From positions 1 to 35,350 of the IMG/VR virus record IMGVR_UViG_3300044608_002164: 35,350 bases of DNA. One strand, 5' to 3'. How positions within the stretch are numbered: the stretch's first letter is position 1; each line of letters begins with the position of its first letter. The notes beneath the pieces were generated by a model that worked only from the letters and a program-made list of their open reading frames with translations, searched no databases and was not told the origin of the DNA. The stretch is from a virus (Duplodnaviria > Caudoviricetes). Of the stretch, positions 1,610 to 30,941 are shown piece after piece. Position numbers and translations under genes: made by a program.

Positions 1610-1819
1610 GTGCTTGTGGGACCTGAGCTACTCGCCGCCGGGATTGCCGCGATCGGCCTCAGCGGTGCAGGCGTCGCTGCCCTCTGGAAGATCGCCAACG
1701 GCCTGGGCAAGTTCGAGGCCCGCACCACCACAATCCTCAGCGGCATCCAGGAGATGCTGAGCGACCACGAGCAGCGCCTCCGATACGTGGAACGCCGCGC
1801 CCCAGACGGCGACCGCTGA
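1610..1819 (+). CDS. Small membrane protein with coiled coil (lysis cassette, holin/XhlA-like)
   Basis: N-terminal hydrophobic helix, C-terminal MLSDHEQRLRYVE heptads, upstream of the endolysin. Confidence 0.5.
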   Translation: MLVGPELLAAGIAAIGLSGAGVAALWKIANGLGKFEARTTTILSGIQEMLSDHEQRLRYVERRAPDGDR

Positions 1820-1835
1820 GTCCCGCGGCTGTAGC

Positions 1836-2072
1836 ATGACCTCGTACACGCCTATCAGAATAGTCATGCCGGTCGTGAGCTACTTGATCGACAACTGGCG
1901 GCAGGTCTTCGAGGTCGTTATCGCGGCCCATGCCGTGGCCTTGATGATCGTCAACCTTACCCCGACCCCCAAGGACGACCGGGCCGTGGGCGCAATCGGA
2001 GCTGCCCTGCCCAAGCTCTACCGAGCCCTCGAAATCCTCGCCGGGATCGTGCTACCCATGGCCAAGCGCTGA
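1836..2072 (+). CDS. Putative holin (start may be ATG 1866)
   Basis: Hydrophobic, contains IVNLTPTPKDD, and lies immediately before the endolysin. Confidence 0.55.
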   Translation: MTSYTPIRIVMPVVSYLIDNWRQVFEVVIAAHAVALMIVNLTPTPKDDRAVGAIGAALPKLYRALEILAGIVLPMAKR

Positions 2073-2076
2073 GCCG

Positions 2077-3231
2077 ATGACCTACGCCTCCGTCCGCACC
2101 GCCGTAGAGCACGCCATCCGCCAGGGCCATCTGCTCCCGCACCAGCTCGCCGCCTTCGAGGCCCTCGACCGCGATCTGACCGCAACCCAGCGCCAGACCT
2201 TCACCGACGACTGGCGCTCCACCGGCAGCCCCGCAGCCGCCGCCACCCCCATCTGGATGGCCCCTGCCCGCGCCATCGTCAAGGAGTTCGAGGCGTGCCA
2301 CCTACGGGCTTCCCTCGACCCCGCCAACGCTTGGACCCTGGGGTGGGGCCACACCGGCCTCGATGTCCGCGAAGGCGTCGCCATCACCCAAGCCCAGGCC
2401 GACACCCTCCTCGATCAAGACCTCACCTACTTCGCCGAGGGCATCCACCGCCTCCTCCCCGGCGCCAACAAGCTCGGCGGCAGGCAGCAGGCCGCCCTGA
2501 TCTCCTGGGCCTTCGACGTGGGCCTCGCCGCGGTGGACACCAGCATGTTGCGCCGCCGCATCCTCGCGGGCGAGTCGTACGTCACCGTCATCCCGCAGGA
2601 GCTGCCGCGGTGGAACAAGGCGGACGGCATCGTCATGGTCGGGATGGTTCGCCGCCGGGCCGCGGAGGTGGCTCTCTTCGTCGGCAACACGGGCCGCACC
2701 AACCCGCTGCCAGTTCCCTACTTCGCGCAGCTCGACAGCAAGACCGATCAGGGCCGCCGCATGTGCTTCTCCAGCTCGTGCGCCATGCTGCTCCAATTCC
2801 TGAAACCGGGGCTCCTCACGGGCCCCAACGGCGACGATCAGTACCTCGCCCGGGTCCGCAGCTTCGGAGACACCACGAGTCCCTTGGCCCAAACCCGCGC
2901 TCTTGCGTCGTACGGCCTCCCCGCTGAGTACATCCAGAACGCCGACTTCGCTCTGGTGGAGCGCCTGATCGATGCCGGCATCCCTGTGCCCTGCGGCTAC
3001 CTCCATCGCGGCCCCGTCTCCGCTCCCGCGGGCGGCGGCCATTGGCTCACCATCGTGGGCTACACCCCAACCCACGTCATCGTCCACGATCCACTCGGCG
3101 AGGCCGACCTCGTAACCGGGGCAACGCTTGACCGCCCTGCCCGTTTCTGTCGCTACAGTCGCGAGAACTTCGGCCGCCGCTGGATGGTCGAGGGCCCCGG
3201 AAGCGGCTGGGCAATCGTCGCCAAGCGCTAG
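2077..3231 (+). CDS. Endolysin: GH24 lysozyme fused to a C39-like cysteine peptidase
   Basis: EFEACHLRASLDPANAWTLGWGHT (E-x8-D-x5-T triad) and RWNKA...RRRAAEVALF. C-terminal VPYFAQ...CFSSSCAM, GGGHWLTIVGY, VHDP (Cys-His-Asp). Confidence 0.85.
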   Translation: MTYASVRTAVEHAIRQGHLLPHQLAAFEALDRDLTATQRQTFTDDWRSTGSPAAAATPIWMAPARAIVKEFEACHLRASLDPANAWTLGWGHTGLDVREGVAITQAQADTLLDQDLTYFAEGIHRLLPGANKLGGRQQAALISWAFDVGLAAVDTSMLRRRILAGESYVTVIPQELPRWNKADGIVMVGMVRRRAAEVALFVGNTGRTNPLPVPYFAQLDSKTDQGRRMCFSSSCAMLLQFLKPGLLTGPNGDDQYLARVRSFGDTTSPLAQTRALASYGLPAEYIQNADFALVERLIDAGIPVPCGYLHRGPVSAPAGGGHWLTIVGYTPTHVIVHDPLGEADLVTGATLDRPARFCRYSRENFGRRWMVEGPGSGWAIVAKR

Positions 3232-3258: not shown

Positions 3259-3525
3259 ATGGCACAGGCCGACTGGATGATCCCACGTCCATCCTTGGCA
3301 GCTCAGGCCCAACTGGAGTACAGCCTGCGGGTGCTGCAAGCAGAAGGGCCCGCCGAATGCGACAAGGTGCTATCCATCGCCGCCGATCTCATGCGCCAAA
3401 ATATGCACTACAAAACGTTACTCAACCAAGCCATTGCCCACATCACCCAGTTGGAAGCGTTGGCAGCTCTGCACGATCGTACTCCTGCTCTATGCGACTC
3501 ATGTAAAGCCGCAGTCGATTCGTAG
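3259..3525 (+). CDS. Hypothetical helical protein
   Basis: 88 aa, TAGACT -10-like hexamer at 3229-3234. The 3' end overlaps the convergent sigma gene by 83 nt. Confidence 0.6.
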   Translation: MAQADWMIPRPSLAAQAQLEYSLRVLQAEGPAECDKVLSIAADLMRQNMHYKTLLNQAIAHITQLEALAALHDRTPALCDSCKAAVDS

Positions 3526-4378
3526 CCTTCGTGTAGACCTGCAAAACCCGCTGCCGGCTGACGCCATGGGCCTTCCCGATATCCGACCAATTCTGCGCCG
3601 TGTACCCGTCAAGCCCTAGCCTCCTGTTCACGATGTCCCGATCGCGCTCAGGCAATCTCACCACTGCCTGCATGATCAGGCCAATCCTCTCCTCCTGAAC
3701 CATGTTGTCCAGCGGCCCCTCGCCCTCCACGTCATCCGTGAGCGTGTTGACGATGGAGGTCCCATCGCCCTCCCGCACAACCAAGTCGAGCGACACCGGC
3801 GGCTGTCCCCGCTCCAAGTAGAGCAACACATCCTGCGGAGTCACACCGAACTCCTCCGCCAGCTCAGCAGTTGTAGGCGCCCTGCCCAGCTCCATCCGCA
3901 ACCGCTGCGTTCTAGCGCCCCAGTTCGCCGCCATATCTCCGATCTTCCCGGGCATATGCACCGATCGATCCTTCTTGATGATGGCGCGTGTGATGCCCTG
4001 CCGGATCCACCAATAGGCATAGGTCGAGAACTTATACCCCATCGAGGGGTCGTAGCGGTGGACCGCCGTGATGAGGCCAATGTTGCCCTCCTGCACCAGA
4101 TCCATCAGGTCCATGCTCTTGGTGACGCGGCTGTAGCGCTTGGCGCAGGACACCACGAGCCGCAGGTTGCTGCGCACAAACTTGCGCTCCGCCCGCTCCC
4201 CAAGCGCCACCTCCCGCCGCTCCTGCGGCGTCAGTTCCCGCTCCATCGCCTTGAGTTCCTGTGCTCTGCGCACCTTCCTCCCGAGGTCGATCTCCTGGTC
4301 GGGAGTCAGCAGCGGCACCCGCCCGATCTCGTTGAGGTAGGCGTGCGAGGTGCTTTCGCCGGTTGTCAGCGTCTTCAT
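3443..4378 (-). CDS. RpoD-like sigma70 factor lacking region 1.1
   Basis: YLNEIGRVPLLT (1.2), NLRLVVSCAKRY, DLVQEGNIGLITAV, YKFSTYAYWWIRQGITRAI (2.3-2.4), IGKAHGVSRQRVLQV (region 4 HTH). Confidence 0.95.
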   Translation of the reverse strand: MKTLTTGESTSHAYLNEIGRVPLLTPDQEIDLGRKVRRAQELKAMERELTPQERREVALGERAERKFVRSNLRLVVSCAKRYSRVTKSMDLMDLVQEGNIGLITAVHRYDPSMGYKFSTYAYWWIRQGITRAIIKKDRSVHMPGKIGDMAANWGARTQRLRMELGRAPTTAELAEEFGVTPQDVLLYLERGQPPVSLDLVVREGDGTSIVNTLTDDVEGEGPLDNMVQEERIGLIMQAVVRLPERDRDIVNRRLGLDGYTAQNWSDIGKAHGVSRQRVLQVYTKATNRLRLYMSRIEQEYDRAELPTLPTG

Positions 4379-5121: not shown

Positions 5122-5371
5122 TGTAGGTAGGCTCCTCTACGGGATATACATTAACCTGCCAACCATGCTTTTGCATACTTTTTGTTAATGCTGCAACCAC
5201 AAGCTGTGCGGTGCTCTCCGGCTTCCATGTGCAAGCGTCTTCAGCTACATCGGTGAACATAGCGTCCAAATCACCGGATTTGTTTGGTATAAAACCGGTC
5301 ACATATACAGTGGTGCCGTCTACGTGCGCGGATACCCCGTAGCGCGTTTCGGTCTTAATGTTTTGGCCCAT
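5114..5371 (-). CDS. Hypothetical protein
   Basis: ORF overlapping the thyX start; ATG 5371 preferred over the track's 5386. Lower GC than neighbours. Confidence 0.6.
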   Translation of the reverse strand: MGQNIKTETRYGVSAHVDGTTVYVTGFIPNKSGDLDAMFTDVAEDACTWKPESTAQLVVAALTKSMQKHGWQVNVYPVEEPTYND

Positions 5372-5436
5372 GGGCTGTGTGAACAACCCACTTACACTAG
5401 CAGGGTAGTACCGCCGCCCGCGCCCTAGTCACAAAA

Positions 5437-8480: not shown

Positions 8481-8494
8481 GAACCACCCACACG

Positions 8495-8746
8495 TCACAC
8501 TTCGTAACAATCGCATTCCGAGAGCACCGTGAGGTCGTACCCCTGCTCCTCGGCCTGCTCGATGGCCATGAGGACGACCGTTGGGCCGCCCTCAAAGTCC
8601 GAGACCGCGAACTCCTCGACGGTATCGGCTAGGCCCTCGTGGAACCACGTCAGGCGCAGCACCGCCAGCACCTCCGGCCCCACCTCCCCCTGGACAAACC
8701 TCACCATCGGCCTGCGGTGAGACTCACGCGACTTGGATTGCGTCAT
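8495..8746 (-). CDS. Hypothetical protein
   Basis: 83 aa, starts 3 nt after the primase stop. Confidence 0.6.
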   Translation of the reverse strand: MTQSKSRESHRRPMVRFVQGEVGPEVLAVLRLTWFHEGLADTVEEFAVSDFEGGPTVVLMAIEQAEEQGYDLTVLSECDCYEV

Positions 8747-8749
8747 GGC

Positions 8750-11227
8750 TCACTCCCAGAGGTTGGCGGCGTTGGTTAGGGCCTCCGCAGACACCGCTCC
8801 ACCCTCTGCGGCGCCATCCGCCTCGCGCGCGCGCGCGGGGGGATATTCCCCAGAGTGTCCCCCGGTGGCAGATCCATTGGTATCACTGCCTTTGACCGGG
8901 GGACAGGGGGTGCCTTTTTCGGGTAGGTGTCCCCCGGTCGCGCCACCCTTACCGGAACCACCCTCTGACCGGGGGACACTTTGTTTTTCCACAGGGGGGG
9001 TGTCCCCCGGTCGATCGACTGCAGCGCAAGGGAAGTGCCCACTGGGGGACACATTTTTAACCTCTCCGCGTGCGCGCGTAGTGGAGGTATCAGGATGAAC
9101 CAAAACCGCCCTGTAGTGGATCACGGTGGATCCCCTCGGCCCCGGCACGCTCTCCACAGCCTCTATTAACCCCCTCTTCACCAAACGCTGGATCGCTTTC
9201 TTCGTCGCAGCCACCCGCCCCCCAACGAGTGGGTCGCTATTGAGATCCGCCTGCCGCAGCGTCCGCGGGAACACCGTCCGCAACCGCTGCAACACCCGAT
9301 CCGAGTGGCTCGCCGGAGTGCTGTCATCCGGGTTGACCTCCGGCGTGAAGTCCCGAATCGAGAACGACAGGTCGTCCTCCATCCGCATAAGCAGCTGTGT
9401 GCCCCCACGACCGCACCGGGACTTCTCGATCGTTATGACCCTCGCAGCGGGCCCTACCTCCGCCAGCAAGGCCCCCTCGGGCTTCTTCAGGGCCCAGACC
9501 TCGTTGACCGCATCCCGAATGGCGCTGGTGCCCCGGAAACCCCCCTGCTTGTTCGCGTGGTGGATCACCACGATCGTCGTGGCCGGATACAGCACCCCGT
9601 TGTTTCTGGTGAGCCAGTACAGCGGCTGCGCAAACTCGCTCTTGTTCTCGTCGAACGCCTTACCCCCAGCGCACCCGATCAGCGAGTCGATGATCACGAG
9701 CTTGGGCCGCCGCCGCTTCATCAACTCCATGAACTGGGCGTAGTAGTGGAGCGACCACTCCCCACGGATCAGCGTGCGCTCATCCAGCGGAAACTCCGCC
9801 TCCTGCAGCTGCTCCTGCAGGTCGCTCAGCGGCTGATCCCCGTTCAGGATCACCACATCGCCCTGCTGCACCGGCACCGGCCTCCCTCGAACCATGAATG
9901 GCAACCCCTCCAGCACATGCCGCCCCAGCGTCCAGGCGCTCATGCTCTTGCCGTCACCCCCCGAGCCGTACATCAGTACCACCCCCGGAGTGGGTAGCAA
10001 ATCAGGGATCAGGTACTCCCGCTCAACCACGAAGTCGCGCAATTTGTCCGCCGTCAGCTCCCCTGGATTTTCCACAAAGCCGACGTGATCGACATACACC
10101 TGCTCCAGCCGGCTCTGATCCCGATACCCGGCCTGCAGCGCCAACTGGTTCAGCTCGAAGTTCCGCTTCCCCGGATCCTCCAGCTCCATCACCGCCTTCA
10201 TCCGAGACATCGCCTCCTCGAACGACAGCGTTGCCTGCCTCACCTCCTGAACCTGGCGAGCTTCCGCCGCCTCAAGAACTCCCCTGCTGGCGTCCGAAAA
10301 TCGCCGCCTCAGCGGATCCTGCTGATCCGCAAGCCACACGAGGGTGGCAAACCCAATCCCCCCGCCCTGCTTGAACGACCCCCAAGGCTTCTCACACGGA
10401 TTCCCCTCCGCCCACTCGGCCGAATACTCCGGGTCCTCCGCACTCCACGCACTCCACAGCGTCAGCCCCAACTCCCCCGGCAGCGCCGAGTGGATCGCCA
10501 TGCCCACCTGCAGCCAGTGGTCCCGGCTCCCCGCCCCCTGCTGCGGAATCACCCGCAAGCAATCCTGCGCAATCTCGGCAATCTCATCCTCAGTCCTATC
10601 TGAGACATCCAAGGCTTTACGATTTTTTAAGAATCCCTTGCCGTCCACCGAGTCGGACGCCGCCGCAGACTCCCGCATCTCCGCCAGCAACCAACCCGGC
10701 GCCTCCGGAATGGAGCGCAAATCCCCAGACAGCGTGTACGCCCCCACAGGGGCCTTCCCATCGCTCGACCCCGGGTAGACGCCGTACAGCAGCCCCTGGC
10801 GGCCCCACAGGACCTCGTAGCCCGCTCCCGTGGCCGCCAGGCTCAGCCCCTTCACCTCCCCCCAGTGCTTCTCCGGCACCCGGAACAGGAACTTGGCCGC
10901 ATTGGCCTTGGTGCTGGTGACGCAGGGTGCCCCCTCCAGCGTCGCCCCCCACTTCTTCTTGAGTCGAGCGAGGTTGGCATCCACATCCAAAATCACCAAC
11001 CCCTGGCTCCGCGGTCCCGTGAACACGCCCACCGCCTTGAACACCTCGGGTCGCCGCTCGATCTGCAGCGCCACATCAGCCGGGTTCATCACGTGGTACC
11101 GCGCTCTGCCGTGGGGCGACTTGCCACGGCTCGGCTTCCCATCGCCCGGCATCACCGCCCCATCGGCGTAGATCGGCGCATAGGCGTAGCCCTCCGGCAG
11201 CGCCCTGACAAACGACAGCAGATCCAT
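8750..11227 (-). CDS. Primase-polymerase / PriCT-2 / RepA-type (AAA_25) helicase fusion
   Basis: GVFTG...LVILDVD (Prim-Pol), RDHWLQVGMAIHS...WSAWS (PriCT-2), Walker A YGSGGDGKS, Walker B LVIIDSL, VVIHHANK, RGTSAI. AGGAG RBS upstream. Confidence 0.9.
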   Translation of the reverse strand: MDLLSFVRALPEGYAYAPIYADGAVMPGDGKPSRGKSPHGRARYHVMNPADVALQIERRPEVFKAVGVFTGPRSQGLVILDVDANLARLKKKWGATLEGAPCVTSTKANAAKFLFRVPEKHWGEVKGLSLAATGAGYEVLWGRQGLLYGVYPGSSDGKAPVGAYTLSGDLRSIPEAPGWLLAEMRESAAASDSVDGKGFLKNRKALDVSDRTEDEIAEIAQDCLRVIPQQGAGSRDHWLQVGMAIHSALPGELGLTLWSAWSAEDPEYSAEWAEGNPCEKPWGSFKQGGGIGFATLVWLADQQDPLRRRFSDASRGVLEAAEARQVQEVRQATLSFEEAMSRMKAVMELEDPGKRNFELNQLALQAGYRDQSRLEQVYVDHVGFVENPGELTADKLRDFVVEREYLIPDLLPTPGVVLMYGSGGDGKSMSAWTLGRHVLEGLPFMVRGRPVPVQQGDVVILNGDQPLSDLQEQLQEAEFPLDERTLIRGEWSLHYYAQFMELMKRRRPKLVIIDSLIGCAGGKAFDENKSEFAQPLYWLTRNNGVLYPATTIVVIHHANKQGGFRGTSAIRDAVNEVWALKKPEGALLAEVGPAARVITIEKSRCGRGGTQLLMRMEDDLSFSIRDFTPEVNPDDSTPASHSDRVLQRLRTVFPRTLRQADLNSDPLVGGRVAATKKAIQRLVKRGLIEAVESVPGPRGSTVIHYRAVLVHPDTSTTRARGEVKNVSPSGHFPCAAVDRPGDTPPVEKQSVPRSEGGSGKGGATGGHLPEKGTPCPPVKGSDTNGSATGGHSGEYPPARAREADGAAEGGAVSAEALTNAANLWE
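8856..9051. repeat. Iteron-like array of six alternating-orientation 11-mers (candidate replication origin)
   Basis: TGTCCCCCGGT at 8856, 8928 and 9001. Reverse complement ACCGGGGGACA at 8895 and 8968, and ACTGGGGGACA at 9041. Period 72-73 bp. Confidence 0.8.
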
Positions 11228-11258
11228 CTGTTAGACTCCTAGTGGAATGTTTGGTTTC

Positions 11259-11290
11259 CGCCCCAGAGCCTAACCGCCTGGGGCGTTTTT
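11259..11290 (+). terminator. Intrinsic terminator-like hairpin in the divergent primase/SSB intergenic region
   Basis: CGCCCCAG-11 nt-CTGGGGCG followed by TTTTT. Confidence 0.5.
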
Positions 11291-16344: not shown

Positions 16345-16959
16345 ATGCTGAAAAACGATCGCTGGCTCCAGGATGAGGGCCTCTTCGGTCTGGTCAAACC
16401 TTTCGTGCCGGAGCTGGTGCGGGAGGTGCAGCTTGACCGGGGCCCAGCACTGCACTTCTGGCGCAACGTGCCTGCCATCTCCTACGGCTGCTCCTCCTAC
16501 GGCTACGACCTGCGCCTATCACCAAGGGAGTTTCTTATCTTCCGCCACATCCCCGGCACCGTGATGAACCCCAAACGGTTCAACCCTGCAAACCTCGAAC
16601 CCGCAGAACTCCACAATGACGAGGATGGCGACTTCTTCATCCTCCCCGCCCACACCTACGGCCTTGGGGTGGCACTGGAGCACATCAACATGCCCCCCAA
16701 CGTCACCGGCCTGTGCATCGGCAAGAGCACCTACGCCCGCCTTGGCATCATCGCCAACATGACCCCCGTAGAGGCCGGATGGAGCGGCCACCTCACCCTA
16801 GAGTTCAGCAATTCAAGTGGTGCGGACTGCCGCATCTACGCCAACGAAGGTATCTGCCAGCTCCTCTTCTTCGAGGGCGAGCCCTGCGAAACCACCTACC
16901 AAGATCGCTCCGGCAAATACCAAAACCAACCCGAATCCGTCACCCCCGCAAAAGTGTGA
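16345..16959 (+). CDS. dcd: dCTP deaminase
   Basis: ISYGCSSYGYDLRL, GKSTYARLG, TPVEAGWSGHLTLEFSN, IYANEGICQLLFF, YQDRSGKYQNQ. Confidence 0.95.
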   Translation: MLKNDRWLQDEGLFGLVKPFVPELVREVQLDRGPALHFWRNVPAISYGCSSYGYDLRLSPREFLIFRHIPGTVMNPKRFNPANLEPAELHNDEDGDFFILPAHTYGLGVALEHINMPPNVTGLCIGKSTYARLGIIANMTPVEAGWSGHLTLEFSNSSGADCRIYANEGICQLLFFEGEPCETTYQDRSGKYQNQPESVTPAKV

Positions 16960-16993
16960 GCTTCGCCCACACATAACCACCGCACACACCTCC

Positions 16994-17239
16994 ATGACAC
17001 ACTGGCAACCGATTGAAACCGCCCCCAAAGAGTTCGGCGAAGTCATCCTCGGGCGTCTAGGACCGTACGACCCGGACGAAATCGCGGCTATCACATTCTG
17101 CATCGATAATTGGCACCGGGGATTCTGGCGAGTCGTACTCCCATCTTCTATAGCCAATCAGCTATATGCGGATGATGCGCCGCACCTCTGGAGAATAGAA
17201 ACCCGGTGGGAGCCCACCGAATGGATGCCGCGGCCATGA
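16994..17239 (+). CDS. Hypothetical protein (WQPIETAPK...PTEWMP type)
   Basis: MTHWQPIETAPKE...WEPTEWMPRP, a common small phage protein pattern. Confidence 0.65.
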   Translation: MTHWQPIETAPKEFGEVILGRLGPYDPDEIAAITFCIDNWHRGFWRVVLPSSIANQLYADDAPHLWRIETRWEPTEWMPRP

Positions 17240-17505
17240 CTTACACCTACGTAGGTCGTGTCTACGACCTAGCGCTTTCCCAAGGTTCCGCCAAGTGGAA
17301 AGTCCGCATCCACTGCACAAACCCAAACATCGATGTATTCGTACGCCTCAAAACCACCAACACCTACATACTCAACCAGCTCACCACTCTCCAAGATGGT
17401 GCGCTCATCGAAGTATCCGCCACCCCCAGCCCCGCCTCCGCCCCCGGCGAGCCCTACACCGTCACCCGCCTCACCGTGCTGAGCACTACCTCCGCAGAGC
17501 CATGA
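17236..17505 (+). CDS. Hypothetical protein
   Basis: ATGA overlap; beta-rich, possibly OB-fold-like. Confidence 0.55.
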   Translation: MTYTYVGRVYDLALSQGSAKWKVRIHCTNPNIDVFVRLKTTNTYILNQLTTLQDGALIEVSATPSPASAPGEPYTVTRLTVLSTTSAEP

Positions 17506-17684
17506 GATTCACAATCACTTCAGACTACGGCCGCATTGGTCCCTTCTGGTGGTACAACAGTGACACCCAGATCCGCGAAATGCACGGCCCGGGCTACCTC
17601 ACAACCTTCAGTAGGTGGGGCAGCTTCACCCTAGGCGGCGGCACCGTAGTTCACTCCCATACAGTCAGGCGCCCCCAGCCCTAA
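17502..17684 (+). CDS. Hypothetical protein
   Basis: MRFTITSDYGRIGPFWWYNSD...; ATGA overlap. Confidence 0.5.
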   Translation: MRFTITSDYGRIGPFWWYNSDTQIREMHGPGYLTTFSRWGSFTLGGGTVVHSHTVRRPQP

Positions 17685-17702
17685 CCACCCGCAACCACCC
17701 CC

Positions 17703-18986
17703 ATGCCCAACCAGCCCTGGTCGAAAGGCCACGTCCCCGAGACCCTCACCGCCGCCCTCCTCGCCCCGCCCGAGCAGCGCGACGCCGCCTTCCGCGCCAT
17801 CGCCCTGCAGGGTCGATCGCGCCTCGCCAGCCCCCGCTTCGGCATCCTCCCCTGGCCCATCGTTGGCCTACCCCCCTTCCCCGCCGACGACAGCGCTCAA
17901 ACTGCTGCCGAACTGGTGGAACTCGCCACCCTCCTAACCCGCGTCGCCGACACCCCCTTCCGCAACATCCGCACCACCCTGCAGTCGCTCGGCAACCCCC
18001 TAGACGGCCTAGGCGTGTATCTTTTGGGCCCCACCAAATCCGCGTCGGTCTTCCGCCCCGAGGAGCAGACCGCCCCCGAGCCCTACATCAGCCAGCTCCT
18101 CCTTCTGCCCGTCCCCATGGGCGCCATGAAGGCCGAGCAGCGCTACACCCTCCGCACCGGTGCCTACGGCACCACACCAGAAACCCGCGCCGCCATGCTG
18201 CGTGGATCGCCCACCGAGGCCCAGCGCTACGGCGAGTCGGTCTACATCCACACCCCCCGTGCCCTGGCCTCGGCCATGCACCAAGACCCGCCCTACCTGA
18301 TGGGCCTCCACGCACTCCTAATTCTGCAGTCGTTAGGAGTTCGCCCCAGCTCCCTATTCCCCGCCCTCCCCGCCGAGGCCGGCTTCACCTCCTACGGCGG
18401 CCCCGCCTTCGCCCAGTGCCTCCTCGCCGAAGCCAGTGATCGAGCGTTCCGCGACTGCTGGATCGTCAAGTACAACCCCGACCCCCAGCAACGCCGCGCC
18501 CGCCCCGAGGAACTCCTCGCCACCCCCGAGCGCCTCCACCCCCTCTGGCACGAGCGCGGCGCCCCCCTTCTCCGCGAGTGGAACGGCTACCTCCCCCTCC
18601 CCATCGCGGAGGGATCCCCACTCCACCCCTCGTGGGTATCCGGCCACGCCGCCACCGCCGCCGCAGAAGCCGTGATCCTCATGGCCCTTCTCGCCGACAG
18701 CCCCTGGCCCGGCGCCCCCCTCCAGGCCAGCAACGATGGAACGTCCCTCGTCACCGCCAACACCACCGCCCTCACGATCCACCGCGAGATCCGCAAATGG
18801 GCGTGGAACAAGTCGTTCGGCCGCGTCGCCCTGGGCGTCCACTACCGCTCCGACATCACCGCCGGCCTCCTCCTAGGTCAAGCCGCCGCAGTCCAACTCC
18901 TCCAAGAGACCAAAGCCGCCTCCCTCGAACCCTGGGGCACCACCGCCTTCATCGGCTTCGACGGCCAGGTGGTGATCATCAAGTGA
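17703..18986 (+). CDS. Vanadium-dependent haloperoxidase (bromoperoxidase-type, PAP2 superfamily)
   Basis: WIVKYNPDPQQRRARPEE, EGSPLHPSWVSGHA and SFGRVALGVHYRSD. Also VBPO-type upstream segments PYISQLLL...EQRY and YIHTPRALASAMHQD. Confidence 0.88.
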   Translation: MPNQPWSKGHVPETLTAALLAPPEQRDAAFRAIALQGRSRLASPRFGILPWPIVGLPPFPADDSAQTAAELVELATLLTRVADTPFRNIRTTLQSLGNPLDGLGVYLLGPTKSASVFRPEEQTAPEPYISQLLLLPVPMGAMKAEQRYTLRTGAYGTTPETRAAMLRGSPTEAQRYGESVYIHTPRALASAMHQDPPYLMGLHALLILQSLGVRPSSLFPALPAEAGFTSYGGPAFAQCLLAEASDRAFRDCWIVKYNPDPQQRRARPEELLATPERLHPLWHERGAPLLREWNGYLPLPIAEGSPLHPSWVSGHAATAAAEAVILMALLADSPWPGAPLQASNDGTSLVTANTTALTIHREIRKWAWNKSFGRVALGVHYRSDITAGLLLGQAAAVQLLQETKAASLEPWGTTAFIGFDGQVVIIK

Positions 18987-19089
18987 CACAGCGCACCCCC
19001 AGCGTGGAACGGGGCTGCGCAGGCAAGGCAAACCTCGGCCGAGACTACCAACGATCGGCCGACCGCCTAGCCGCCAGCCATGGCAAGCT

Positions 19090-19380
19090 CTAACGCCGCG
19101 GCAGCTTCAAGTGGTCCAGGATCCTCTCGATCTCCCGGTCCTGCCTATCGTCGTGGCGCTTCCCTTCCACCAGCTCCTTGTCCTGCCGGGTATCAACCCC
19201 CTTCTTCTCCTCCATCTGCTTGCACACCTCGCGCAGCGTCACCTCCATCTTCTGGAACGAGCTGACCATCCCACTCCCCGCCCCCAACGCCCACCCCACC
19301 ACAGCCGTCACCGACCCCACAGCAATCTGCCCAGCCCATCCCGGGCCGCCCTGAGATCCGCCGCCATTAGCACGAGTCAT
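19090..19380 (-). CDS. Solitary antisense gene: hydrophobic helix plus coiled coil
   Basis: WAGQIAVGSVTAVVGWALGAG followed by charged heptads. TAGCAT hexamer (19392-19387) 6 nt before the ATG. Confidence 0.65.
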   Translation of the reverse strand: MTRANGGGSQGGPGWAGQIAVGSVTAVVGWALGAGSGMVSSFQKMEVTLREVCKQMEEKKGVDTRQDKELVEGKRHDDRQDREIERILDHLKLPRR

Positions 19381-19404
19381 GGCGCCATGCTAGCCACTGC
19401 GCGA

Positions 19405-19458
19405 TTGTTAAGAAACACAACAACCCGCAGCCGCCACCCCCGCCCGCCGTGCAATACT
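19405..19458 (+). promoter_or_regulatory. Second TTGTT-N9-AACAA site plus -10-like AATACT
   Basis: GATTGTTAAGAAACACAACAACC; AATACT at 19453-19458, same spacing as at dcd. Confidence 0.45.
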
Positions 19459-19502
19459 AGGCTCACAGGGAACAAGCCCTGCCACACCACCGCAACTAAA
19501 CC

Positions 19503-19910
19503 ATGTGCCTATCCATCGCAATCAAGCGCCCTGAAGATGTACTCGCCAAAGGCGAGCACCTCGGATTCGAGTGGAGCGTCATCCACAACGGCAGCGGCTA
19601 CCGGTGTGGTTATGTTCGCGTTCCGATCGGCCACCCGTGGCACGGACAGGACTACGACGAGGTTGCCTGCGACTGTCACGGCGGCCTCACCTTTGCCGAA
19701 GCGGACATCCCCTGCGGCAAAGGCGGTGAGGACAACGCCTGGTGGGTCGGTTTCGATTGCGCACACGGCGGAGACGCCCCCGACCCCGAGCTGCCCCGGT
19801 CGTTCGTGCCGTCCTTTGAATGGGGCCTAGTCCGCACCCAAGAGTATGTCGAGGCGCAGTGCAGGCAAATCTGCGAACAGGCCGCCGCCATTCAAGCGGG
19901 GGTGGCATGA
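19503..19910 (+). CDS. Conserved phage hypothetical protein (Cys/His-rich)
   Basis: GYRCGYVRVP..HP, CHGGLTF and WWVGFDCAH.GD motifs. Confidence 0.75.
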   Translation: MCLSIAIKRPEDVLAKGEHLGFEWSVIHNGSGYRCGYVRVPIGHPWHGQDYDEVACDCHGGLTFAEADIPCGKGGEDNAWWVGFDCAHGGDAPDPELPRSFVPSFEWGLVRTQEYVEAQCRQICEQAAAIQAGVA

Positions 19911-20122
19911 CCGCAGACCGAACCAGGGCCCTTCAACTCGCCGGTGAATTGGCCAATGCTGCCCGCGCCCTTGTTGGCGGCATCGACACCAAAGGCTGGT
20001 ACATCAAACCCGCCACTGTAGACAGCGTGGGTCGCCTATCCGAGGCCCTGCGCACCGCCCTCGACGCCTACGACCACCACATCATCGAGATGCTCCGCAA
20101 CCCAACCGCACCCAAACCATGA
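19907..20122 (+). CDS. Hypothetical protein
   Basis: MTADRTRALQLAG...; ATGA overlaps. Confidence 0.55.
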   Translation: MTADRTRALQLAGELANAARALVGGIDTKGWYIKPATVDSVGRLSEALRTALDAYDHHIIEMLRNPTAPKP

Positions 20123-20319
20123 ACACCCCCGACACTGATGTGCGAATCCGCGCCCTCGAATACGAGGTCCAGACCCTGCGCACCCTGCTCACCGCCCTGC
20201 AAGGTCGCGTAGCCGAACTCAGCACATCCGCGACGCCGCAAACAGCGCATACTACGTGGGACATATCGGAGGCCGATATTTTCGATACGGGGGTTGAGCC
20301 CCGCCGCGTACGTCCCTAA
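20119..20319 (+). CDS. Hypothetical coiled-coil protein
   Basis: RIRALEYEVQTLRTLLTALQGRVAEL. Confidence 0.55.
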   Translation: MNTPDTDVRIRALEYEVQTLRTLLTALQGRVAELSTSATPQTAHTTWDISEADIFDTGVEPRRVRP

Positions 20320-20624
20320 TGGAAGGCCCCACCAAGCGGAACTGGTACAACGACCTAGAGACCTATCTAGCCCGTGAGGAACACCGACGTGCTAGGGAGG
20401 AGCGGTGTTTTGCCGTGCTCAAAGTGTTCACACTAGCGTCAATGCTTGCGCTACTTGCGGTATGTGTACTCCAAGAACAAAAGCTAATAGAAGACTGCAC
20501 CGCGACCGAAACCACACGCCAAGCAACTCCGGTGTGGATGTACTTCGGTAGTGGTTTCTTCATCCCAGTCCCGCGTTCTGAGCACCTCTATGTCTGCCCC
20601 AACAACCGCACTCTTTGGCGCTAG
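20319..20624 (+). CDS. Hypothetical membrane-anchored protein
   Basis: TAATG overlap; central hydrophobic helix. Confidence 0.55.
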   Translation: MEGPTKRNWYNDLETYLAREEHRRAREERCFAVLKVFTLASMLALLAVCVLQEQKLIEDCTATETTRQATPVWMYFGSGFFIPVPRSEHLYVCPNNRTLWR

Positions 20625-20775
20625 CCGCCCCCGCCCTGTGTGGCGCGTCATCACCAACAACGGCGAGCTGCACCTCCACGCCCCCGACCGCCGCGAGGCC
20701 ATCATCTGCGGCCTCGAACTCCTCGGCCCCCGCGTCGAGTGGATCCGCTGCTCACTCCTAGAGCAGTGGGCCTAG
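20590..20775 (+). CDS. Hypothetical protein (start uncertain)
   Basis: VWRVITNNGELHLHAPDRREAIICGLEL with host-genome-like codon usage of this phage; overlaps the previous gene. Confidence 0.45.
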   Translation: MSAPTTALFGASRPRPVWRVITNNGELHLHAPDRREAIICGLELLGPRVEWIRCSLLEQWA

Positions 20776-20808
20776 TGTGCTAGAGTAGTCGAGTACACCC
20801 ACACCACC

Positions 20809-21075
20809 ATGCCCCGCAAGTACACCCGCGATCCGCACCTCCCGCACCCGGAAGTCTGCGACTGGCTCCTCTCTCTTGAGTGGGAAGGTCCATTCCGCGC
20901 AGAGCTGCGCACTCCGCTATTCAAGGGTGTGCGCCCCAACGCCCTAGCCACATCCGCCGCCCTGGGCCGCGACCACATGGTCGAACTCTTCATTGACGAG
21001 GACGACCTCCCCGCCCTCAAAGAGGACGCCCGCGCCCGTGCCGCCATGGCCTGGCTCACCGAGAACAACCCATGA
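20809..21075 (+). CDS. Hypothetical protein
   Basis: TAGAGT -10-like hexamer at 20781-20786. Confidence 0.6.
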   Translation: MPRKYTRDPHLPHPEVCDWLLSLEWEGPFRAELRTPLFKGVRPNALATSAALGRDHMVELFIDEDDLPALKEDARARAAMAWLTENNP

Positions 21076-21623
21076 CACACCGCGAACCCGGGTGGTACGT
21101 GTATCTGCACCGGCCTACCGACCATTGTCAAATATCGCGCCAAGACTCTCCTAATTTCATAGAGGACATGTATAACGCGACTGTATACGGACCGTTCCCA
21201 TCGCGCGAGGCTGCCAATTTATGGGACACAATGCGCCGCTCAGCACGTGTGGAACCTGATTCCGTACCGCAGGAACCCCTAGGCGAGACACCTACAGCCC
21301 CACCCCGCCCCCGCCTTGACCTCCTCCCCACCGCCCCCCTAGAGGAAGTGGCTCGTGTCCTCGCCCACGGCGCCGAAAAGTACGACCCCTACAACTGGTG
21401 CAACGGCACCCGATGGGGCCGCTGCTACCGCGCCCTGCTGAGCCACGCCTGGGCCTGGTGGCGCGGCGAAGACACCGACCCCGACTCCGGCCTCTCCCAC
21501 CTTGCCCACTGCATCTGCAACCTCCTCTTCCTGATGGAATACCAGCGCAACGGGTGGGGCGAGGACGACCGCTTCCGCGGCCCCACCGGCGCCGCATTCA
21601 AGAAGAACGACGGTGCCGCGTAG
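21072..21623 (+). CDS. dATP/dGTP diphosphohydrolase domain protein (DUF5664 type)
   Basis: RLDLLP..LEEVARVLAHGAEKYDPYNW..G...ALLSHAWAWWRGEDTDPDSGLSHLAHCICNLLFL. Confidence 0.85.
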   Translation: MTHREPGWYVYLHRPTDHCQISRQDSPNFIEDMYNATVYGPFPSREAANLWDTMRRSARVEPDSVPQEPLGETPTAPPRPRLDLLPTAPLEEVARVLAHGAEKYDPYNWCNGTRWGRCYRALLSHAWAWWRGEDTDPDSGLSHLAHCICNLLFLMEYQRNGWGEDDRFRGPTGAAFKKNDGAA

Positions 21624-22462
21624 TGGATCGCACCGACGCCCTAGCCGCCCTGCGCCGCTCCAAGCTGGTACGTGACGACAGCGGCCCCACCCGCGTCTAC
21701 CGCGACCCCGCCGGCAACGTCTACAACTCCGTCACCACCATCCTCGGAGCCACCGCCGACAAAACCAACCTCGACGGGTGGGTCGCTCGCCAGGACCGCA
21801 TCTACGGCCCCGGCGCCGCCGCCCAAGACCGCACCGTGGCCGCCACCCGCGGCTCCCAGGCCCATTCGCAGGCCGAGTACCTCCTCAAGACCACAAACAA
21901 GGTGGCTCGTGCCACCGCAAACCGCCGCGGCGTCCTGCGCATCGACGCCCACGGCCTCCCCCACATCCCCACGCCCATCTTCCGCTGGGCAATGGAGCGC
22001 ACCCTCCCCAACCTCCCCCCGGTGTCGCTCAGCGCCAAGGGCTACGCCCGCGGCCTCACCGAGTGGATCGCAGCCAACACAACCCAGTGCCACGCCTGCG
22101 AGTTCTCCATTCACCACCCCGCCGGCTTCGCAGGCACCGCTGACGCTCTCCTCTCAGTGGTGCCCACCGACGAGATCGAACTGGGCGCCCCCCTGGTGGT
22201 TGACTTCAAGACCTCCGCCAACCGGCGCAGCGCCGCCATGCTGGCCGACTACACCCTGCAGCTCGGCGCCTACTCCCTCGGGCTGGAGCACCTCACCGGC
22301 CTCCGCCCAGCCGGTGCCCTAATCGTTGTCGCACGCCGCGTAGGACCCCCCGATCTCACATTCATCAGTCGATCGGACCTCACCATCGCCGAGGCCGGCT
22401 TCCTAGAGCGCCTCGACGCATTCAAGGCCATTCAGGGCGAAGCGCAAAAATCGCATTCATAG
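21623..22462 (+). CDS. PD-(D/E)XK exonuclease
   Basis: Likely start GTG 21623. YNSVTTILG, RGSQAH, CEFSI, FAGTADAL, VVDFKTS, LQLGAY. Confidence 0.85.
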   Translation: MDRTDALAALRRSKLVRDDSGPTRVYRDPAGNVYNSVTTILGATADKTNLDGWVARQDRIYGPGAAAQDRTVAATRGSQAHSQAEYLLKTTNKVARATANRRGVLRIDAHGLPHIPTPIFRWAMERTLPNLPPVSLSAKGYARGLTEWIAANTTQCHACEFSIHHPAGFAGTADALLSVVPTDEIELGAPLVVDFKTSANRRSAAMLADYTLQLGAYSLGLEHLTGLRPAGALIVVARRVGPPDLTFISRSDLTIAEAGFLERLDAFKAIQGEAQKSHS

Positions 22463-27063: not shown

Positions 27064-27296
27064 CAGGAGGGGGCGGTGGGGAGCTTGTGAGCGGGAGGAG
27101 CAGAGAGACACGGGACCTTAGGTGGGGTGTGGTGGTGACGGAAGGCAGCGCTGCACCCTCTCACCTAAACCGCCCCTTGCACCCTGCTCTCACCTCTCAC
27201 TCTACATCATCACGCCCACCTTTGCATGGATCGCCCCACTACCACACGGCGCGGCGCCCTGTGACCCCCCGTTACAAATCGTTACCCTCCCCCCAC

Positions 27297-27315: not shown

Positions 27316-27426
27316 GGGGTGCTACCCAACACTCTCTGGTCAACCCCATTTTGAACTACCCTCACACTCTACCACCCTGCCCCCTACCCCCCGTTACATT
27401 GCTATGCAAGAACTCCCCCAAGTGGT

Positions 27427-29281: not shown

Positions 29282-29304
29282 GTAGTACCGCCTCTGCGTG
29301 GATC

Positions 29305-30918
29305 GTGAGCGACAACAGCAGCTACCCCGTCGCCGCCGCCATCCCCGCAGCCCCGGCCTACAACCTCCCGCTTCCATCGGGCGTCAACGACTCCGACCCC
29401 TCGAAGCGCTCCCAACTCGTCCAAACGATGGAGCCCGACTGGGCCCCCATCGACCTCTGCGTCGGCGGCACCACCGCACTCCGCGCCAACAGCACCACAT
29501 ACATCCCCAAGGAACCCCGCGAGGACGCCGAAGCCTACAACCGCCGCATCTTCCACGCCACCCTCCCGCCCTTCCTGACCCGCCTTGCCTCCCAAGCCGC
29601 GGGCGTCATCCTCCGCAAAGGCATCCAGATCGAGGGCGACGACTACTGGACCACCTGGGCCAAGGACGTAACCGGCGACGGCACCACCCTCGACGAATAC
29701 GCCCGCACCAAACTCATCACCGCCTTCCTCTACGGCCACCACAGCACCATCGTCGATTTCCCCGACGCCGCCCCCGCCTCCAACCTCGCCGAAGAACGCG
29801 CCCAAGCCCGCACCCCCTACCTCGTCCCCATCACCCCCAAACAAATCCTGGGGTGGCGCACCTCCGGCACCAGCTGGTCGAGCGCCCTCTCCCAAGTCCG
29901 CATCCGCGAGACCGTCATCCTCACCGAAGAACTCGGCCGCTTCGGCGAGGAAATCACCGACCAAATCCGCGTCCTCGAACCCGGCCGCTACGAACTCTGG
30001 CGCCCCAAAACCCCCCGCACCAACCTCCCCCCAAACAACCAAATCCCTGGCCCCACCTCCTGGGAGATTTACAAATCCGGCACAACCAGCCTAGAGCGGA
30101 TCCCCCTCGTCACCGTCTACGCCAACCGCCGCGGCAATCTCCTCAGCACCCCACCCCTCCTCGAAATCGCCCACCTCGTCATCGCCTACGCGCAGCGCTT
30201 TTGCGACTACCACCACTCCATCCACGTCGGCGCCTCCCCCATCCTCACCCTCCTCGGCTTCGACGACACCGAACTCAAAGATGGAGAGGCCGGTCTCTCC
30301 GTCAACAACGCCGTCCTCCTCCCCATCGGCGGCGACGCCAAATACGTCGAGCCCACGTCGGACGCCTTCGACGCCCAGCTCAAGTGCCTCGCCGCCCTCG
30401 AAGATCAAATCTCCCGCCTCGGCATCAACACGCTCACACAACAAAACTTAACAAACGCTGCCGCCGAGTCCCGCCGCCTCGACCGCATCGACAACGACTC
30501 GATCATGGCCGTCATCGCGGGCGACCTCGAACGCGCCATCCGCGAAATCTTCGACATCGCCTCCGCCTACGTCGGAATCGAACCCCCCGAAGTCTCCATC
30601 CCCCGCGACTACGAAAACCGCCTCCTCGACGGCAACCAAGTCACCGCCTACCTGCAACTCTTCATGCAAAAGGCGATCAGCCACAAGACCCTCATCACCA
30701 TCCTCCGCGATGGCGAGGTCCTCCCCGCCAGCCTCGACCCCGACGAGGAAATCTCCGCCGTCCAGGAAATGCTCGAAGAGCAACTCGCCATGAACCGCCT
30801 CCGCCTCAACGACTCCCCGGGTGGTGCGGACCTCGCCTTCCAGAACGCCGGCCAAGGCGAGTCCCTCAACAGCCAGACCCTCCCCACCCCCATGCGCCCC
30901 GGCCGCAACGCCGACTAG
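29305..30918 (+). CDS. Portal protein (DUF4055 type)
   Basis: GGTTALR...YIPKEPREDAEAYNRRI, DVTGDGTTL, IPLVTVY...PPLLEIAHL; position after terL. Confidence 0.85.
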   Translation: MSDNSSYPVAAAIPAAPAYNLPLPSGVNDSDPSKRSQLVQTMEPDWAPIDLCVGGTTALRANSTTYIPKEPREDAEAYNRRIFHATLPPFLTRLASQAAGVILRKGIQIEGDDYWTTWAKDVTGDGTTLDEYARTKLITAFLYGHHSTIVDFPDAAPASNLAEERAQARTPYLVPITPKQILGWRTSGTSWSSALSQVRIRETVILTEELGRFGEEITDQIRVLEPGRYELWRPKTPRTNLPPNNQIPGPTSWEIYKSGTTSLERIPLVTVYANRRGNLLSTPPLLEIAHLVIAYAQRFCDYHHSIHVGASPILTLLGFDDTELKDGEAGLSVNNAVLLPIGGDAKYVEPTSDAFDAQLKCLAALEDQISRLGINTLTQQNLTNAAAESRRLDRIDNDSIMAVIAGDLERAIREIFDIASAYVGIEPPEVSIPRDYENRLLDGNQVTAYLQLFMQKAISHKTLITILRDGEVLPASLDPDEEISAVQEMLEEQLAMNRLRLNDSPGGADLAFQNAGQGESLNSQTLPTPMRPGRNAD

Positions 30919-30941
30919 CGCCGCACTGACCCCTACCACCC

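Follow-up and report, generated by a model that had tools for sequence, protein, structure and literature searches.

A compact enzyme of the vanadium bromoperoxidase fold and its convergent membrane-protein gene in a lake-water phage

Introduction

Work on vanadium haloperoxidases has dealt with enzymes that algae, fungi and bacteria secrete and that act on small molecules. The DNA considered here (the window: 35,350 nucleotides, positions 1–35,350 of IMG/VR virus record IMGVR_UViG_3300044608_002164, Caudoviricetes) carries a gene for a compact enzyme with the active site of a vanadium bromoperoxidase (VBPO), and raises the question of what a phage does with such an enzyme and whether the enzyme works alone. 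A first-pass annotation, made from the sequence without database searches, had described a stand-alone auxiliary gene of a kind uncharacterised in phages. The first part of that description is not supported, since the enzyme gene travels with the gene of a small membrane protein, which lies tail to tail with it in 22 of the 23 contigs having downstream DNA. The second part holds: no description of a viral vanadium haloperoxidase was found in the literature by title or abstract opening, although gene tables of virome surveys could list such proteins under PAP2 names, and the available excerpt of a 2026 halogenase-mining paper leaves phage unmentioned (PMC13519999). The enzyme locus is real, selected and undescribed in the literature searched. 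Coordinates are collected in Table 1; the prefixes L, P and X denote homologue or control loci or contigs, homologue proteins and sequencing runs, respectively.

Active site and overall fold of the enzyme

The reading frame is open from the ATG at 17703 to a TGA ending at 18986. The vanadate ligands occur in order as K256, R267 (followed by P268), S313-G314-H315, R374 and H380, with H308 as the second histidine, all at the places given in the first-pass annotation. They pair one to one with K341, R349, S416-G417-H418, R480, H486 and H411 of the Ascophyllum VBPO, and D195 and W253 align with D278 and W338 of that enzyme, whose residue numbers were counted by hand along printed alignment rows. 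A second histidine before the SGH motif and a conserved aspartate mark VBPOs.

A sequence search of the Protein Data Bank returned ten matches, every one a vanadium bromoperoxidase (E 2e-19 to 2e-11). The AlphaFold model (AF2; 42-sequence alignment) has a pLDDT of 91.8, and the 12 solved structures that it matches at E<=0.001 are likewise all VBPOs, with TMq values of 0.71–0.84. The corresponding values are 0.14–0.29 (E>=0.018) for acid phosphatases and membrane PAP2 proteins and 0.13–0.26 for the fungal and actinobacterial vanadium chloroperoxidases and the Zobellia iodoperoxidase. The Pfam PAP2 match is confined to the shared C-terminal motifs (residues 294–397), the SepP profile reaches 18 bits against a cut-off of 250, and profile PF22778 has no match in the window or in the control genomes. 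Ligand order, second histidine, aspartate and predicted fold thus agree with the VBPO family, and neither the small PAP2 phosphatase fold (about 200–240 residues) nor the chloroperoxidase-type fold was found. The enzyme departs from VBPOs in its K-to-RP spacing (10 residues against K-x7-RP) and its length (427 residues against 550–670), features that are typical of the family and not strictly defining. On its modelled fold and its site, and not on activity, we file it in the VBPO structural family. The first-pass annotation had likewise called it a VBPO and not an ordinary PAP2 phosphatase, and had also noted the shortness of the copy, about three extra residues between the lysine and RP, a tryptophan replacing the tyrosine of HPSY, and the absence of a signal peptide; each of these was seen again, no signal-like sequence being found at the N-terminus.

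The closest structural relative is A. nodosum VBPO I (PDB entry 1QI9), the best match at E 2e-19, with a profile E of 7e-44 over residues 100–531 and a TMq of 0.83. The two enzymes have in common all seven vanadate-site residues, the second histidine, the aspartate and the tryptophan, at 24–25% sequence identity. Compared with the 556-residue Ascophyllum protein, the phage enzyme is shorter by about 60 residues at the N-terminus and by about 20 behind RP, and its K–R loop has 10 residues instead of 7. It differs further in its clade-specific residues C239 and H360, in being viral and in being paired with a membrane protein. The VBPOs of Corallina and Acaryochloris marina (PDB entries 1UP8, 1QHB and 5LPC) share the fold (TMq 0.71–0.82) and the vanadate site. 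According to an excerpt of PMC11871015, these are dodecameric proteins of 595–666 residues with an arginine (R397/R425) where the compact enzymes have tryptophan, and subunit-interface loops shape specificity in VBPOs.

No match to the enzyme was found in PHROGs, in 50,697 cultured-phage records or in PADLOC, and Atlas searches returned only unnamed viral clusters at 0.93–0.94, without a named family. The only halogenating enzyme of a cyanophage that we compared, VirX1, is a flavin-dependent halogenase (PMC6864650, excerpt), which belongs to an unrelated family and uses flavin instead of vanadate.

The C-ending codon bias noted in the first-pass annotation is explained by strand skew. The fraction of C-ending codons is 0.67 in the enzyme gene, 0.79 in terL and 0.75 in the portal gene, whereas the minus-strand genes (polA, primase, sigma) end in G at fractions of 0.51–0.60. 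The bias shows amelioration, and codon adaptation was rejected. The plus strand of the window is C-rich almost throughout, regardless of gene direction (cumulative GC skew -5.7), and yields long shadow frames such as that at 29298–30929 over the portal gene.

A compact clade on phage-like DNA

A first protein search gave 49 matches, 43 of them short (267–447 residues, 37–97% identity), and searching the 50% representatives, together with a second profile, contributed a deeper homologue set. The tree has 82 rows (quick search without a mixture model, midpoint-rooted), and the 29 compact enzymes in it are set off from the rest by a branch with support 100. The rows closest to them are proteins of 490–540 residues (P0059, P0062, P0068, P0073, P0105 and P0112), which have the same fold, are longer and are probably viral. 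Two cyanobacterial plasmid copies and 16 copies from bacterial genomes lie farther away. These plasmid copies stand well apart from the phage clade, and a derivation of the latter from cyanobacterial VBPOs is not supported. A scan of species genomes (63 of 64 parts) found at least 32 loci; among the matches listed none was of the compact type and none was titled cyanobacterial. Three giant-virus proteins (Hokovirus A0A1V0SGK0, Sylvanvirus A0A3G5AI90 and Yasminevirus A0A5K0U6L7) have the same fold (TMq 0.78–0.85, BFVD); they are longer and are labelled only as PAP2 or uncharacterised.

The genomic context of compact enzymes was seen on 25 contigs, of which 18 came from the window or the viral collection and seven were short metagenome contigs; the enzymes were met only on phage-like or unassigned DNA. 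The enzyme gene is under purifying selection, with ratios of nonsynonymous to synonymous substitution (dN/dS) of 0.13–0.47 in nine pairs by a simple counting method. Both results support the earlier suggestion that the gene is resident in phages.

Across 71 compact homologues, which are 355–456 residues long, R267, H308, G314, H315, R374, H380 and D195 are invariant, and K256 and S313 are each kept in 70. The loops at the site entrance vary while the ligands stay fixed: the K–R spacing ranges from 6 to 10, compared with 7 in 111 of 115 long homologues, and position 311 is Y, W or D. Two residues are proper to the clade. H360 occurs in 71/71 compact enzymes and in 3% of the long homologues, and C239 in 58/71 and 5%, respectively; it is present in all 16 enzymes read from loci. 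W253 is not a clade feature, as its equivalent is found in 110/115 long homologues.

A pattern for twin-arginine translocation (Tat) occurs in 51 of the 115 long homologues, a hydrophobic N-terminus in eight and neither in 56 (23 further sequences, short or without an initial Met, were left out). Four of 74 compact enzymes match the Tat pattern, in each case in a conserved internal stretch that is not a signal. In the tree, the group closest to the compact clade is without the pattern as well.

Some members and relatives deserve separate mention. A divergent subclade (P0060, P0061, P0063–P0065, P0085, P0091 and P0177; loci L104 and L105) keeps the ligands, often has Asp for the HPSY tyrosine and Ser for D384, and in some members lacks C239. 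In P0051 the R-to-H stretch is shortened. A Rhizobium phaseoli plasmid (NZ_CP013575.1; L206:3824–4951) encodes a 375-residue VBPO-like 'hypothetical protein', with 37% identity over 60% of the query, that adjoins AbiGi, Shedu nuclease and GIY-YIG genes in a defence-island-like setting; PADLOC has no match for the protein. On a plasmid of Pseudanabaena PCC 7367 (L204:2965–3978) a vanadium haloperoxidase gene lies between IS630 and IS21 elements and seems to have been truncated at its 5' end by the former.

The convergent partner gene

The partners are single-pass membrane proteins of 73–111 residues in which a single hydrophobic Gly-rich helix is combined with a coiled coil and a basic tail. 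In 15 aligned rows at 13–75% identity C53, Q66 and D67 are invariant, and a cysteine is present in all 44 family members checked. The partner gene is also under purifying selection (dN/dS 0.03–0.54, eight pairs). No Pfam, NCBIfam or PADLOC family was found for the protein, holin families gave no match, and two partner sequences had no meaningful match among cultured phages. Several partners match Rz-like spanin families of PHROGs weakly (E 0.003–0.05); Rz-type inner spanins have an N-terminal transmembrane helix, a periplasmic coiled coil with cysteines and a partner gene for an outer-membrane lipoprotein. The structure model of the partner itself is poor (pLDDT 52.5).

The linkage survey comprised the window and 23 loci. 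In L007 and L019 the locus stops at the enzyme gene; L018 ends inside it and was left out. Several of the contigs with the pair are near-copies, and about 15 are distinct. In 20 of 21 measured pairs the distance between the two stop codons is -20 to +37 bases, and in the window it is +103. The record of L007 proved to be permuted, with the partner directly behind the 3' end of the enzyme gene. A 36-codon remnant fills the larger gap of the window. L002 lacks it, as do contigs of the runs X5, X7 and X17, in which the two genes are joined across the gap site. The linkage holds at 34–41% enzyme identity while the upstream neighbours change.

Three controls address whether either gene occurs without the other. 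In the first, 77 viral loci were compared with a related endolysin as anchor: 74 have neither gene, three have both (these are contigs already used to build the profile) and none has a single one. The second control covered 47 whole records, namely the three positives and 44 of the 77, chosen as longer than the locus. The enzyme was found in the three positives only, and so was the partner, apart from a single weak match (E 0.009) within a 360-residue frame; none of the nine records that are at least 90% complete holds either gene. In the third, scans anchored on two partner subfamilies found five loci, all on enzyme-bearing contigs. Two sub-alignments were used there, the 15-row alignment being too divergent, and the scans cover partner types other than those of L010/L012/L106, L011, L104 and L105. 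Giant-virus loci (L110–L112) have no partner match. Tree distances of enzyme and partner correlate, with rho 0.75 for 15 pairs and 0.68 for ten distant pairs (p<=0.0003). We are fairly confident that enzyme and partner work together and are not merely linked.

Holins are small membrane proteins with a basic C-terminal tail, encoded next to an endolysin. The partner has a hydrophobic helix and a basic tail, and its gene follows the endolysin in six of 16 loci (L004, L008, L009, L011, L017 and L104). In the window and in L003, L006, L010, L012, L105 and L106 it stands apart from the lysis cassette, beside the enzyme. It is unlikely to be the ordinary holin of the phage, as a separate holin-like gene lies beside the endolysin in the window, L004, L008, L010, L011 and L106. 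Because the lysis cassette of the phage itself lies 16 kb away, we regard the partner as an extra gene. Related phages have, upstream of the same endolysin, a coiled-coil protein with either an N-terminal (L131, L139, L141, L157) or a C-terminal (L116, L119, L140) transmembrane helix, apparently as alternatives; the three of these that were tested fall in no annotated PHROG family. Those of the N-terminal type resemble the partner in layout and in a D-x-R-Q-D stretch, and differ from it in lacking the cysteine, in their shorter stalk, in their place upstream of the endolysin and in occurring in enzyme-less loci.

A -10-like hexamer lies six bases before the partner ATG, which suggests a leaderless transcript, and an HLR1-like direct repeat (19421–19404; consensus from an excerpt of PMC6525291) matches at 12 of 16 positions. 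Both were spotted by eye before being counted. A -10-like box 5–8 bases before the partner ATG occurs in 6/16 loci against 9/370 other starts, and an upstream HLR1-like repeat (at least 12/16) in 6/16 loci of four lineages against 19/370. The position of the repeat varies from about -32 to -65, and the window has 18 such sites. A sigma-70 promoter scan of 16900–19700 gave no promoter and two terminator-like sites, the same as in shuffles. The box and the repeat are a weak hint that the partner may have its own, perhaps light-linked, control. Elsewhere in the window HLR1-like repeats precede the terminase large subunit gene on the plus strand (27271–27288, 14/16; 27393–27410, 13/16), and others lie at 3407, 5170–5428 and 8494–8508; they may be sites for host RpaB or a phage late-promoter element.

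Proposed mechanism and alternatives

The six sequencing runs that contain at least half of the sampled sequence words are lake-water metagenomes, three of them possible sources of the window; the habitat is lake water. Lakes hold little bromide, which weakens the bromination, signal-halogenation and grazer-deterrence roles put forward in the first-pass annotation. The peroxo-vanadate form of VBPOs oxidises halides, hypohalous acids react fastest with thiols, and photosynthesis in strong light yields H2O2. Taken with the fold, the site, the loss of a signal and the two clade-specific cysteines (C239 of the enzyme and C53 of the partner), the simplest reading places the enzyme at the membrane, where it would act on the partner cysteine or by way of it. 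We put at roughly 0.4 the probability that it oxidises or cross-links the partner with H2O2 from host photosynthesis, as a peroxide-driven switch of the envelope late in infection.

Such a switch would work as follows. The enzyme would probably bind vanadate and form the peroxo-vanadate oxidant, and would act as a pair with the partner. The latter would sit with its N-terminus outside and its C-terminus inside, so that its coiled coil would meet the cytoplasmic enzyme. Oxidation would then go to the partner thiol by direct oxygen transfer, via HOCl or HOBr, or as a C239–C53 tether, and little bromide would be needed. Finally, the holin-like partner would alter membrane permeability or the timing of lysis. 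Direct transfer has a parallel in AnVBPO, which passes peroxide oxygen to a sulfide (PMC11433219, excerpt). The fuller version, in which the genes form a two-gene viral redox device that writes H2O2 onto the single cysteine of a holin-derived partner and so tunes lysis to light and oxidative stress, we regard as doubtful.

Several points weigh against the proposed switch. Vanadate has to compete with phosphate in the cytoplasm, which is also a reducing compartment. In L016 no partner lies in the 404 bases downstream of the enzyme, the three positive loci of the endolysin-anchored control were not new to the profile, and L106 is placed differently in the enzyme and partner trees. Linked genes can give congruent trees without co-evolution, and abutting or overlapping stop codons could hold two unrelated genes together. 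The enzyme gene closes a rightward early/middle run, the partner gene is often located behind the endolysin, and the two may therefore be timed differently. C239 is absent from 13/71 compact enzymes and D384 is replaced by Ser in 22/71, and C53 falls, by hand count, at a flanking heptad position, so that a simple homodimer disulfide is not favoured. Moreover, enzyme-less phage loci have relatives of the partner without the cysteine upstream of their endolysin (hhalign 83.9%, E 7.8e-6; they score 9–15.5 bits compared with 112 for a true partner member), which makes the partner a specialised branch of a common class of lysis-cassette genes.

The first alternative, which we consider unlikely, is a stand-alone haloperoxidase that disposes of H2O2 or halogenates organic matter of the cell and the lake at lysis, with the small gene hitch-hiking via the abutting stops. 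The complete VBPO site and fold speak for it, L016 does without an adjacent partner, and Cys-free partner relatives exist where there is no enzyme. Chloride could serve in lakes if W253 counted, tryptophan there going with chlorinating ability according to an excerpt of PMC11871015; W253 is, on its distribution among long homologues, inherited and nothing special, and is ruled out as a chloride adaptation. Against independence, adjacency persists to 34% identity despite many rearrangements on both sides, and the Cys form of the partner was not found without the enzyme in control loci, records or partner-anchored scans.

It is less likely still that the partner serves as a dedicated holin-like pore or adaptor by which the signal-less enzyme reaches the periplasm or cell surface, in place of the Tat route of cellular relatives, reactive halogen then weakening the envelope or acting outside. 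The contrast in Tat patterns between long and compact enzymes would fit, and so would the resemblance of the partner to membrane proteins of lysis cassettes and its place behind the endolysin in six loci. However, the phage has holin-like genes of its own, lysis would free the enzyme anyway, the nearest outside group also lacks the Tat pattern, and the invariant cysteine is left unexplained.

Somewhat more improbable is a vanadium-free phosphatase acting on phosphates of nucleotides, sugars or lipids, which the partner would hold at the membrane or which would serve adjacent DNA-metabolism genes. The phosphate-rich cytoplasm and bromide-poor lakes would suit it, a dCTP deaminase gene lies near the enzyme gene in 9/22 loci, and residues around the site drift within the compact clade. 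Vanadium haloperoxidases and acid phosphatases also have a common active-site pattern (PMC9144378, excerpt). What speaks for a haloperoxidase instead is that the bromoperoxidase features H308 and D195 are kept in 71/71, that the whole 427-residue VBPO scaffold is kept where phosphatases are about half that size, and that the upstream neighbours are not constant.

Least probable, and drawn by analogy with some colicins, which have convergent membrane immunity genes, is a toxin–immunity pair in which the enzyme would make a damaging oxidant and the partner would inhibit it or absorb the oxidant by its thiol: strict pairing, convergent layout, the -10-like box as a pointer to separate control and the Rhizobium plasmid gene beside defence genes are consistent with it, but PADLOC matches neither protein, one cysteine on a small membrane protein would be a poor bulk scavenger beside glutathione, and the partner derives from lysis-cassette genes.

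Genome, host and assembly

The window encodes DNA polymerase A, a primase-helicase, ThyX, a sigma factor, dCTP deaminase, terminase, portal, capsid and endolysin. The phage is a siphovirus. Among cultured phages, its sigma factor, portal and endolysin are matched best by those of Synechococcus phages (S-CBS1, S-2L/KBS-S-2A and S-CBS2, respectively; 36–45% identity), so its host is likely a picocyanobacterium. In G048, a 49.6-kb record of this phage, there are tail genes in addition, and no integrase match was found; the relative L004 has an integrase. No tRNA genes were found in the window. On L207, which is the same phage outside the window, a second short sigma-factor-like reading frame (10715–11260, minus strand; 181 residues; PHROG 351, E 6e-14) sits among head-tail and tail genes. 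No PurZ-like family appeared among the 55 open reading frames (ORFs) of the window and 15 of L207 that were scanned, a scan that included no direct PurZ search.

The assembly is sound at the enzyme locus, which disposes of the doubt, raised in the first-pass annotation, that it might be chimeric. A contig of run X1, which may be the source of the window, spans 16488–22000 with zero differences from it, a contig of X4 bridges 18664–20129 unchanged, and L002 is syntenic at 93%. Contigs of runs X7, X12 and X20 diverge from the window at 17507 and 19505, which indicates that related strains share the enzyme–partner cassette while the flanks differ.

Table 1. Features of the window discussed in the text (aa, amino acids)
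Feature	Coordinates	Strand	Remarks
Lysis cassette	1610–3231	+	Two small membrane proteins (1610–1819, 1836–2072) and lysozyme/C39 endolysin; 16 kb from partner
Group 2-like sigma factor	3443–4378	-	Best cultured matches are Synechococcus siphoviruses
Unknown 60-aa ORF just upstream of enzyme	17502–17684	+	Related-strain contigs diverge at 17507
Compact VBPO-fold enzyme gene	17703–18986	+	427 aa; complete vanadate site; no signal peptide
36-codon gene remnant	18983–19093	+	Fills the 103-base enzyme–partner gap; whole (74 aa) behind enzyme in L016
Partner gene	19090–19380	-	96 aa; N-terminal hydrophobic Gly-rich helix, coiled coil, basic C-terminal tail
Putative partner promoter region	19381–19421	-	-10-like hexamer 19392–19387; HLR1-like direct repeat 19421–19404; weak lead
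dATP/dGTP diphosphohydrolase gene	21072–21623	+	
Portal gene	29305–30918	+	Best cultured match is cyanophage S-2L

Significance

Lake cyanophages thus hold a deep, selected clade of haloperoxidases with a fixed membrane partner, in a habitat where bromide is scarce. At 355–456 residues these are among the smallest VBPO-fold scaffolds seen here, and their naturally varied channel loops would help studies of halide specificity. Lake viruses would be an unrecognised source of organohalogens if the enzyme does no more than halogenate. The pair offers a cheap and concrete test of what a viral haloperoxidase is for, as it consists of two small genes and two cysteines. If it proves functional, the two-gene module would be a new kind of system, linking photosynthetic peroxide to the lysis machinery of the phage. 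Should the redox-device reading be true, a virus would for the first time provide a haloperoxidase with a protein partner or substrate dedicated to it, and vanadium chemistry would be used in the control of phage lysis.

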